Source: a virus. From it: 64,000 bases of DNA. Below, piece after piece: positions 25,015 through 34,186 of the stretch. How positions within the stretch are numbered: position 1 is the first letter of the stretch; each line of letters begins with the position of its first letter. The translations under genes were made by a program, and so were the position numbers. The notes beneath the pieces are model-generated. The model saw only the letters and a program-made list of their open reading frames with translations, ran no database searches and was not told where the DNA came from. Location: positions 1-64,000 of IMG/VR virus record IMGVR_UViG_3300050821_003463. One strand, written 5' to 3'.

Positions 25015-25094
25015 GGGACTCGTAGCTCAAGGGTAGAGCAAGGGACGGTATAAAACCCGCCCCTGCGTCCCCGTTCAACTCGGGGCGAGTCCCG
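25015..25094 (+). ncRNA. tRNA-like RNA with elongated aberrant anticodon arm
   Basis: GGGACTCG/CGAGTCCC stem; canonical D arm TAGCTCAAGGGTAGAGC; T arm CCCCG-TTCAACT-CGGGG; anticodon arm AGGGACGG-TATAAAAC-CCGCCCCT; no encoded CCA. Confidence 0.75.
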
Positions 25095-25110
25095 CTTAAA
25101 AAAGGAACTT

Positions 25111-31793: not shown

Positions 31794-32068
31794 CGCCCCT
31801 CCAGACTGGTTTCAAGGATGCGCAATTCTTCGCTGTTGCTGAGCACGGGTTCGAATTCACTGGTTGCTTCCAGCAGAGTCTCCCCGAACATCGGACCCAT
31901 GAGGTCATCAACAGCCCGTGCTGAGTCACGGTAGTAATTTCCCTTGATCTTCGGGTTGACATACTTCGCCTCGTACCTCTCGCGCAGCGCGCGGAGCGAC
32001 TTCAACCCATCGCTTTCTTCATCAACCTCGATCAGCCGTTCGAGCGGGAAATTACGAAGCTGGTTCAT
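31790..32068 (-). CDS. hypothetical protein
   Basis: GGAGG RBS; overlap with neighbours. Confidence 0.6.
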   Translation of the reverse strand: MNQLRNFPLERLIEVDEESDGLKSLRALRERYEAKYVNPKIKGNYYRDSARAVDDLMGPMFGETLLEATSEFEPVLSNSEELRILETSLEGR

Positions 32069-32315
32069 TGGTGACCTCCACGTTGCGGACGTTGCGCGTG
32101 CATTTGCACGACTTGGAACATCCAGAGCAGCGCCACGAGCCGAGTGAGCCCTCAGCCTCTGGATGCGCTCCCAGGTGAGCCTGGGTCAGTTTGTTCGCTG
32201 CGACGCAAGGCGTCTTCTTCGCTACCGTGTTGCAGCAAACCGAGAAGTACGCAAACTTGGCATCTGCCAAGGGATCGCGCACAGGAACAGGCTTCGACTT
32301 GAACGGCTTTTTCAT
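32052..32315 (-). CDS. Cys-rich hypothetical protein
   Basis: GAGGAG RBS; CC...C...CxxCxxxCxC. Confidence 0.6.
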   Translation of the reverse strand: MKKPFKSKPVPVRDPLADAKFAYFSVCCNTVAKKTPCVAANKLTQAHLGAHPEAEGSLGSWRCSGCSKSCKCTRNVRNVEVTNEPAS

Positions 32316-32332
32316 AGTGTCTCCTCAAAAAA

Positions 32333-32991
32333 TCTGGGTGTTAGAAACTGCTCTCTACCGCCCCTCCGCGACGAGGATTGGTGAAGGTGTTCGCGTTACC
32401 TCCGACCCTGCGTGAGAGCCGAGAGCAGTCACTAACGACCAGAAATTACATGCGTGTTATGTGGTTTCAACGCATGGAACAGGGTAAGTCAGAACTCGAA
32501 CCGCGTTTTTATTACGCGATTGCCTGCTTCTCAAACCCACCCCTGCTTCGAATTCTATTTACCCTTGGGCTCTTGATCCTTCTCAAAACCCCATAAAGTC
32601 GGTCATAGGTTCCTCCAAAGATTTAGTGGGCGAGTGAGCCGTCCTCGCCCCAGGGCACAGCAGCATTATGACCGTGTTCGGCGGGGGCTACCCGCTTCTC
32701 CGTGTTCTGCGGTATCTGCCTATCAATTAGGTGCCCAAAATCAAACTTAACACCGGGAGATTCGAACTCCGGTTCGGAGGGATGACTGGGAGTGACGTCC
32801 CACTTTTGCATCTCCGAACTACGCTCACCTACGTTTAAGCCTCTCACGCACAGTGCCAAGATCAAGAAAGTACCGGGAGAGGTACGGCGAAAAGGTCGGG
32901 GGATCGTGCCCAAGTCGACCTTGGCTAATCCTCTCCCTTCAAGTGGCTGACGTAGGGTCTAGAATGCGCTTCGTCTCCACCGGATGTTAAG
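32333..32991 (-). ncRNA. candidate large structured non-coding RNA with a T-loop
   Basis: ~660-nt gap between recA and the next gene, containing more than 12 nested helices and GGAG-TTCGAAT-CTCC adjacent to a terminal helix. Confidence 0.65.
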
Positions 32992-33013
32992 AGCAGAAAC
33001 TTCCTGCATTTCG

Positions 33014-34186
33014 CTAAATGGCTTCCAGGGCAGCGGCAACTTGTTCATCGTTCAACCTCTCCGTCGTTATCTTCTCGGCTTCTGATTTAATAGTATCGAA
33101 GAGAGGTTCCTGTGTCAAGTCCAATCTTCGATAATTTTCGTTCTTGAAACCGTACCAGCCTTTCGGAACTCCGTTGCCCGTTCCTGCCTTGACGTCTTCC
33201 TTCGTCTGGTCGCCTTCGATCACCGCGCCGATTTTGATCGCGTACGCAACGACATCGCTCTTGAGATCGAACCCAGTCTCGTACAGCAGGTTGACTATCG
33301 TCTCGCGGAACGGAGGACCCACTTTGTTCTTCACGTTTTTGATCCGCATCTTATGCCCGATGTGGACTGCCTGATCATCTCTGATCTCGCCCCCATCTGT
33401 CTTCGACAACCGACGCACTTCCAGTCGTACAGATGACCAGAACTTCAGCGCGCGCCCACCAGTAGTGACTTCCGGATTTCCGAACGTCACGCCGATCTTC
33501 TCGCGCACCTGATTGATGAAGATCACCAGGACTCCTGCCCTGTGCGCCTTCGCTACGATCTTACGCATCGCCTGGGACATTAGCCGCGCGTGCAGACCCA
33601 TGTGACTATCGCCCATGTCGCCTTCGAGTTCGGCTTTAGGAACGAGAGCCGAGACAGAGTCAACGACGATGATGCGAAACGCTCGCGTGTCGATCAAGCC
33701 ATCGAGAACTTCCAATGCCTGCTCGCCGTAATCCGGCTGGCTGATCAGCAAGTTGTCGACGTCAACACCCAGCTTCTTCGCATAGTTCGGATCGAGTGCG
33801 TGCTCTGCGTCAATGAATGCTGCGAAGCCGCCCGCGCGCTGCGCCATCGCGATGAAGTGCAGGCTGAGCGTGGTCTTACCGGATGATTCCGGTCCATAGA
33901 TTTCAACTACGCGACCATCCGGTAGACCGCCGCAAGACATTAAAATCTCGTCAAACGTTGGCATGCCTGAAGCAAGGCAAGGTAGACGGACTCCCGTCTT
34001 CTTGCCCAGCTTCTGGATGAGTTGCGTCTCGTACTCGGCGTTGAACGAGCGGATGACACCGTCAATCGCCTTTAGCTTATCAGCCTTCGAGAGTTCCGGC
34101 AGCTTGACTAACTTCTCCGCTTTCTTCGACGGGGGTGCCGTCACCGAGGACTCCTGGTTGGGACTGACCTTGACCTGTAGAGACAT
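33014..34186 (-). CDS. recA: RecA recombinase
   Basis: EIYGPESSGKTT, FIDAEHALD, VVDSV, IFINQVREKIGV.FGNPEVTTGGRALKF, KNKVGPPF. Confidence 0.97.
   Translation of the reverse strand: MSLQVKVSPNQESSVTAPPSKKAEKLVKLPELSKADKLKAIDGVIRSFNAEYETQLIQKLGKKTGVRLPCLASGMPTFDEILMSCGGLPDGRVVEIYGPESSGKTTLSLHFIAMAQRAGGFAAFIDAEHALDPNYAKKLGVDVDNLLISQPDYGEQALEVLDGLIDTRAFRIIVVDSVSALVPKAELEGDMGDSHMGLHARLMSQAMRKIVAKAHRAGVLVIFINQVREKIGVTFGNPEVTTGGRALKFWSSVRLEVRRLSKTDGGEIRDDQAVHIGHKMRIKNVKNKVGPPFRETIVNLLYETGFDLKSDVVAYAIKIGAVIEGDQTKEDVKAGTGNGVPKGWYGFKNENYRRLDLTQEPLFDTIKSEAEKITTERLNDEQVAAALEAI

Follow-up and report, generated by a model that had tools for sequence, protein, structure and literature searches.

The 698-nt spacer between recA and orf87 in a soil virus genome is probably a mosaic of at least five structured RNA modules, located on the minus strand and having separate evolutionary histories. 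In 5' to 3' order, these modules are a long hairpin (D1a), a tRNA-like cloverleaf, the D2 motif, D3 with a small hairpin, and the four-way junction D4. The genome (G000) is a 94.5-kb IMG/VR virus record of soil origin, rated complete, and the window, i.e. the whole stretch of DNA analysed, comprises its first 64 kb. The evidence for the modules is drawn from two or three genomes.

The spacer is bounded by recA upstream and by the gene of a Cys-rich protein, orf87, downstream (Table 1). The orf87 protein belongs to a small family of about 19-20 sequences with 64-80% identity, characterized by invariant cysteines (Cys27, Cys28, Cys63, Cys66, Cys70 and Cys72) and a PEAEGxLGSW motif, and could not be assigned to a Pfam family. 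Within this phage group, the orf87 gene is always found directly downstream of recA. A sigma-70-like promoter match is located within the last 100 nt of recA and is directed into the spacer; the consensus scan returned 1 site where 0.6 were expected, which is not significant by count.

RecA-anchored scans of IMG/VR and metagenome contigs identified two close relatives only, the sister phage G001 and L098, and orf87-anchored scans added G002 and G003. G001 is the closest genome (RecA 79%), being syntenic throughout with 65-82% nucleotide identity, and L098 is the closest RecA relative (84%). The length of the recA-orf87 gap varies from 698 nt in G000 to 372 nt in L098, about 216 nt in G003, 210 nt in G001 and about 11 nt in G002. 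The gap of G001 holds only a D4-like element, its D2 being located elsewhere, and the gap of L098, which includes an ORF of about 50 aa, holds only a D3-like piece. A DNA search with the whole gap found nothing in G002-G008 (seven phage records). In the metagenome of the source soil, a 585-nt variant contig of about 90% identity aligns to 32333-32486 and 32621-32853, with 32487-32620 (Domain III) replaced by 58 other bases. In this contig, recA is reached after about 83 nt vs 235 nt, which suggests that 32860-32991, the 5' half of Domain I, is missing as well, with only 30 nt on that side of the joint. The domains were seen all together in no relative examined. These comparisons show each module being acquired, dropped or relocated on its own. 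An array of several RNAs, which the sequence-only reading had kept as its fallback, therefore fits the evidence best, as the modules come and go separately. As a side observation, the ORF of L098 (4383-4535, MKLPNWRLLRAERF...) has its own Shine-Dalgarno sequence between recA and the orf87 homologue and sits where G000 and G001 carry the four-way junction.

Table 1. Positions of the features discussed. Positions without a prefix are those of the window; prefixes name other records or parts of G000 outside the window.
Feature	Position	Strand	Description and evidence
recA	33014-34186	minus	390 aa; Pfam RecA PF00154, 5.5e-107; upstream neighbour of spacer
Sigma-70-like promoter match	33090-33118	minus	TTGACA-17-TACTAT; consensus scan, 10/12 matches
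Spacer recA-orf87	32316-33013		from recA stop to orf87 ATG
D1a	32860-32991	minus	long irregular hairpin; helices and predicted fold; terminator-like site
tRNA-like cloverleaf	32746-32859	minus	114 nt; MFE fold; T-arm; tRNA-like CM
D2 motif	32626-32748	minus	about 123 nt; homology to G001:24977-25108 and covariation
D3 (Domain III)	32482-32565	minus	stem-closed three-way module; z -3.46; weak similarity to L098
Isolated hairpin	32446-32479	minus	CAUGCGU/ACGCAUG, 14-nt loop; inverted repeat I7; z -1.69, not significant
D4 (Domain IV)	32333-32443	minus	four-way junction, three hairpins and closing stem of about 20 bp; z -3.15; sister-phage counterpart
orf87	32052-32315	minus	87-aa Cys-rich protein; downstream neighbour of spacer
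Complementary segments	32409-32418/32841-32850; 32373-32388/32918-32933; 32399-32413/32766-32780		D4 loops vs Domain I
Permuted tmRNA	G000:71748-72053		75.5 bits
LAGLIDADG-type ORF	G000:72024-72458 (locus L084)	minus	144 aa (LSYAAGLFDGEGTV...)
X	G000:72551-72709 (L193); G001:24745-24896; G003:20222-20370; G002:6694-6839	minus (G000)	CM matches of 61-179 bits

The coordinates of the spacer and all helices listed by the sequence-only reading proved correct when checked against the sequence, and several of the helices were also detected as inverted repeats. For Domain I, these are 32746-57/32980-91, 32772-79/32812-19, 32828-34/32950-56, 32875-82/32930-37 and 32892-98/32916-22; the others are GGTCATA/TATGACC, GGGCGAG/CTCGCCC, GCGGG/CCCGC, AGGGTAA/TTACCCT, CATGCGT/ACGCATG and CTGCTCTC/GAGAGCAG. 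Folding compared to shuffled sequences gives a mixed picture: it speaks to some degree for the whole gap, more clearly for Domain III and Domain IV, and not for Domain I as originally drawn (z -1.54) nor for Domain II (z -0.21), whose support is covariation and not folding energy. With 60 shuffles, the whole gap has an MFE z of -2.2 (minus strand) or -3.2 (plus strand), with 20 shuffles these values are -2.6 and -3.6, and ten 698-nt control windows from the same genome have a mean z of -0.5 (sd 1.2, minimum -1.6).

The spacer had been said to carry no RNase P, tmRNA or intron signature, and indeed Rfam gave no match to these or any other family. A cmscan of the spacer had no match at the gathering threshold, with the GOLLD and ROOL models included, and at E<=10 sub-regions of 901, 266 and 201 nt returned noise only (snoTBR6, CC0196, ZNFX1-AS1). 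ARAGORN in default mode reported nothing within the spacer and a blastn search of 50,697 phage records gave no match. A group I or group II intron was rejected: there is no Rfam core match, and recA and orf87 are uninterrupted, with the full length seen in their relatives. The absence of conserved protein coding was equally upheld. ORFs of 72-96 aa are mechanically present in the spacer, without Pfam match; the largest, of 96 aa, finds only itself among 5.8 billion proteins, and the reading frame across D2 differs between the phages.

D2 is the only part of the spacer with a clear homologue (E 1e-5), and this copy lies directly upstream of the permuted tmRNA of G001, 40 kb away. The fold common to both copies consists of P1 (6 bp), a 10-nt bulge, P2 (GGCAG/CUGCU), AU/AU and P3, followed by a variable GC hairpin and the GGGCGAG/CUCGCCC hairpin. 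The bulge (YYAAUUGAUA) and P2 are invariant while the flanks diverge, and the P1 of one copy, GGGCAC/GUGCCC, corresponds to UGACCC/GGGUCA in the second. Each of the 17 pairs is formed in both copies, all four variable pairs being compensatory with both sides changed, and sliding the register leaves 0 covariation. This covariation comes from two sequences only, and because there are only two per motif the shuffle control saturates at 32/500 and cannot go lower. The G.U pairs of D2 are compatible with the minus (gene) strand only. Furthermore, G000 and G001 differ in the frame in which the conserved bases are read, so their conservation is not at the protein level.

Within G000-G004, a D2 covariance model detected no additional copy. 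In IMG/VR, exact and gapped patterns of D2 retrieved G001 only, besides chance matches in AT-rich coding sequence, and the D2 pattern gave four chance matches without extended similarity in 185,579 prokaryote genomes. At the equivalent spot of the tmRNA locus, D2 is absent from G003. On comparative grounds, D2 is predicted to be a discrete transferable module. Two other identities were considered for it and rejected. An HDV-like (theta) ribozyme, mapped by eye, would have P1/P2 pseudoknot partners that are not common to both copies, and a promoter reading of the invariant 17-mer conflicts with a -35/-10 spacing that differs between the copies and with the motif occurring only once in each genome.

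Upstream of D2, Domain I divides into two elements. The 3' strand of its terminal helix (CGGUGUUAAG) has two equally long 5' partners, namely 32983-32991, as in the sequence-only reading, and 32851-32859. The latter pairing closes the cloverleaf, which is the unconstrained MFE fold of its segment, with a weak z of -1.88 (minus strand; -0.08 for the plus strand). It is composed of a 9-bp acceptor-like stem UUGGCACUG/CGGUGUUAA (or CUUAACAUC/...), then GUUUGA, with two arms and a T-arm. The canonical T-arm GGAG-UUCGAAU-CUCC (32756-32770, minus) adjoins the 3' strand of the acceptor-like stem and is 16/17 identical to the T-arm of the phage's own tmRNA; the tmRNA T-arms of G001, G002 and G003 have GCGGG/CCCGC instead. 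The T-stem has one C.C mismatch, CCA, G3:U70 and an anticodon loop are lacking, and no alanine-rich tag frame is found in the translation. The similarity of the variant contig ends at 32853, within this element.

The cloverleaf has no match with tmRNA models, Rfam tRNA or default ARAGORN, and the same tmRNA searches do find the real tmRNA of this phage (Table 1). Relaxed ARAGORN calls it with a 32-nt insert, at a threshold that yields many false calls. A genuine tRNA was thus rejected, with no tRNA-finder call at default and no 7-nt anticodon loop in the MFE cloverleaf. Using a model made from two sequences of the RNA X described below, the best match near the gap in a 4-kb search was 32742-32858 (12.2 bits, E 0.006). 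The better, four-sequence model scores the cloverleaf at 9.3 bits, fifth across the whole window and below genuine tRNAs; therefore, it is named tRNA-like and membership of family X is not supported.

The 5' part of Domain I forms D1a, in which GGGAGAGG/CCUCUCCC encloses AAGGUCG/CGACCUU, followed by GUACC..GGUAC and UUUCUU. A terminator-like site lies at 32885-32870 (minus), one of 3 pattern matches in the region vs 1.4 expected. D1a is a candidate terminator or stabiliser of the recA 3' end.

Outside the window, X is a conserved tRNA-like RNA of about 150 nt which adjoins the tmRNA in G000-G003. Its acceptor stem of 6 bp is accompanied by two enlarged arms and a T-arm, its 3' end reads GCCC-ACC, and 12 of the 36 pairs in its two-sequence fold are compensatory. 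Neither Rfam nor default ARAGORN calls it. X is always within about 300 nt of the permuted tmRNA, upstream in G000 and G001 and downstream in G002 and G003. A second, weak match to the X model lies away from the tmRNA at G003:25434-25571 (locus L197; 15.4 bits, E 0.02). The permuted tmRNA of G001 (RF04321, 73.7 bits) is called by ARAGORN too, and the order there is X, an 80-nt spacer, D2 and tmRNA; in the window, the cloverleaf is directly followed by D2. In G000, the place of D2 at this locus is taken by a LAGLIDADG-type ORF, located between a conserved upstream hairpin and the T-arm of the permuted tmRNA, its 3' end overlapping the acceptor piece. No remnant of the LAGLIDADG gene was found in the spacer. 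HNH-type ORFs flank the tmRNA loci of G002 and G003.

D4 ends 6 nt (U6) before the Shine-Dalgarno sequence GAGGAG of orf87 (32321-32326). Its counterpart in G001 (L002:5257-5392, z -4.98) has the same architecture in the same place, with a 21-bp closing stem and three hairpins, and the whole element adjoins the Shine-Dalgarno sequence. Both share a single A before the 3' strand, a first hairpin beginning with GGCU and the hexaloop GUYGCG of hairpin 3. Of 22 pairs compared with the junction as anchor, 10 are double changes, 3 single changes and 0 are broken, as counted on two sequences aligned manually by the author. The G.U pairs fit the gene strand. A four-way junction likewise precedes the Shine-Dalgarno sequence in G003. 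Parts of the stretch, D2 and D4, thus carry compensatory changes; in these alignments, the pairing of both is kept through such changes, which points to selection for pairing.

D3 has a weak collinear similarity to L098:4286-4335 (E 0.04), within the L098 gap. An alternative fold is common to both, with the core AAGCRGGGG..GGUUUGA..AGCAGG..hairpin..CUGACUUAC, in which 14 pairs show 0 broken and 1 double change. In G000, at most 1 kcal/mol separates this shared fold from the MFE, which is the fold of the sequence-only reading.

Read together with the flanking genes, the composite spacer may serve as cis-acting RNA punctuation of an early polycistronic transcript, a function which we infer and favour tentatively. 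The D1a hairpin and its U-tract would end or stabilise the recA message. Cleavage at the tRNA-like element would be by the host tRNA-processing enzymes RNase P and RNase Z, and cleavage in the long stem that closes D4 by a double-strand-specific nuclease of the RNase III type; at 20-21 bp in G000 and G001 (about two helical turns), this stem is a candidate RNase III site. These cuts would separate the recA and orf87 messages, each left with a protective structured end. The roles given to nucleases here are purely conjectural.

Several known systems are comparable. Mitochondrial t-elements and the species 1/2 RNAs of T4 are tRNA-like punctuation or stable phage RNAs. Like the cloverleaf, they have a T-arm, are intergenic, have no decoding capacity and are plausible RNase P or RNase Z substrates; however, they are unrelated in sequence. 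RNase III processing stems lie between early genes of T7-like and lambda-like phages. D4 resembles them in its closing stem of about 20 bp, which separates co-oriented genes and immediately precedes a ribosome-binding site, but is a four-way junction and not a simple bulged hairpin. Large comparative screens have yielded many phage tRNA-like and gene-upstream structured RNA candidates (PMC10690425); as short intergenic motifs with covariation, often gene-upstream or tRNA-like, these are similar to D2 and D4. No description of D2 or D4 was found in the literature, a comparison outside which the 10,006 candidates of PMC10690425 lie.

Should the punctuation reading be correct, the leading claim, a new giant ornate phage RNA, would have to be dropped. 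Two small motifs of soil phages would stand instead, D2 and D4, which belong to no known family and whose pairing is kept by compensatory change. D2 would clearly illustrate the movement of an RNA module between tmRNA locus and mRNA spacer, alternating with a homing endonuclease gene at the former. Long ORF-free 'structured' gaps in phages could then arise by accretion of independent pieces, which matters for large-ncRNA screens that rely on gap size and fold density alone.

The main rival, which we consider unlikely, is that the spacer is an array of discrete, stable, trans-acting small RNAs, in which the cloverleaf and D2 could form a two-domain RNA tied to the tmRNA/X locus. The gene order is alike, X-spacer-D2-tmRNA in G001 and cloverleaf-D2 in the window, and the near identity of the window T-arm with that of the G000 tmRNA, where G001-G003 differ, agrees with such a tie. 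Similarly, the invariant bulge of D2 is what is expected of a binding site, and a promoter-like site is present upstream. However, with 9.3 bits the window element is no clear member of family X, it lacks both ACC(A) and G3:U70, and D2 is absent from G002 and G003, although both carry tmRNA and X.

The spacer might also be evolutionary debris of a recombination hotspot, with fragments such as a decayed tRNA/tmRNA copy, a piece of the tmRNA locus and palindromic insertions that are functionless now. The extreme length variation at the recA-orf87 junction, the homing endonuclease traffic at the donor locus, the degenerate tRNA-like element (T-stem with a C.C mismatch, anticodon loop absent) and the rarity of homologues would all be in line with this. 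Yet every pair of D2 and D4 is intact via compensatory changes at 20-30% nucleotide divergence, unlike in decaying sequence, and the bulge and P2 of D2 stay invariant where the flanks diverge, making debris an improbable explanation.

A bolder proposal, to which we give quite low credence, is that the cloverleaf and D2 constitute an undescribed two-domain phage RNA linked to trans-translation, with D2 as a portable part and the excess complementarity of the tRNA-like region to D4 as an RNA-RNA regulatory contact. D2 would be placed on the 5' end of the permuted tmRNA acceptor piece in the sister phage or behind the tRNA-like body in G000, and would compete with the LAGLIDADG homing endonuclease for the site at the tmRNA locus. 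PMC11915505 places introns in the T-loop only among known tmRNA gene forms and calls the protruding ends of the permuted ones idiosyncratic. The tRNA-like domain of tmRNA (PMC11915505) resembles the cloverleaf in its acceptor-like stem stacked on a canonical T-arm, and the only homologue of D2 abuts a permuted tmRNA acceptor piece. Unlike tmRNA, the cloverleaf lacks G3:U70, CCA and a tag reading frame, and neither the tmRNA models nor default ARAGORN match it.

The sequence-only reading had preferred one large RNA of about 660 nt resembling GOLLD/ROOL; its domains would fold together by long-range contacts. As in GOLLD/ROOL (cryo-EM in PMC12286853), the spacer is phage-borne, several hundred nt long, ORF-free and rich in helices, with a tRNA-like element nearby. 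The 698 nt without a conserved ORF are tiled with helices on one strand, no known family matches and the whole gap is more stable than the ten control windows. In addition, loops of D4 are complementary to Domain I over 10/10, 13/16 and 12/15 nt (Table 1), a top-3 score reached in 1/300 shuffles, which could reflect interacting modules. However, the complementary strands are already used in local helices, and purine- or pyrimidine-rich runs, which shuffling destroys, may explain the excess. In contrast to GOLLD/ROOL, no covariance-model match is found at E<=10, and the domains are independently present or absent, so that the architecture is not kept as a unit. Since the spacer is not conserved as a unit, the Domain II homologue is 40 kb away and the variant of about 90% identity swaps Domain III (and seems to be without D1a), a single RNA is unsupported and must be regarded as very improbable; the domains co-occur in no relative, being scattered or swapped instead.

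Least credible is a DNA-level element (a replication origin, packaging or recombination site) or a set of unannotated small protein genes, for although the spacer sits in a replication/recombination gene block beside recA, has many inverted repeats and contains the ORFs mentioned above, the G.U pairs in covarying helices point to RNA, there are no iterons, no AT-rich tract (GC 0.54) and no skew turn, direct repeats are <=13 nt in two copies, and the ORFs have no Pfam match, no homologue and no conserved frame across D2. A replication origin was rejected on the absence of iterons, AT tract and skew turn. Elsewhere in the window, a locus that the Rfam tRNA model leaves unreported at gathering score is called by ARAGORN as a tRNA-Ile(TAT), at 25015-25095 on the plus strand.
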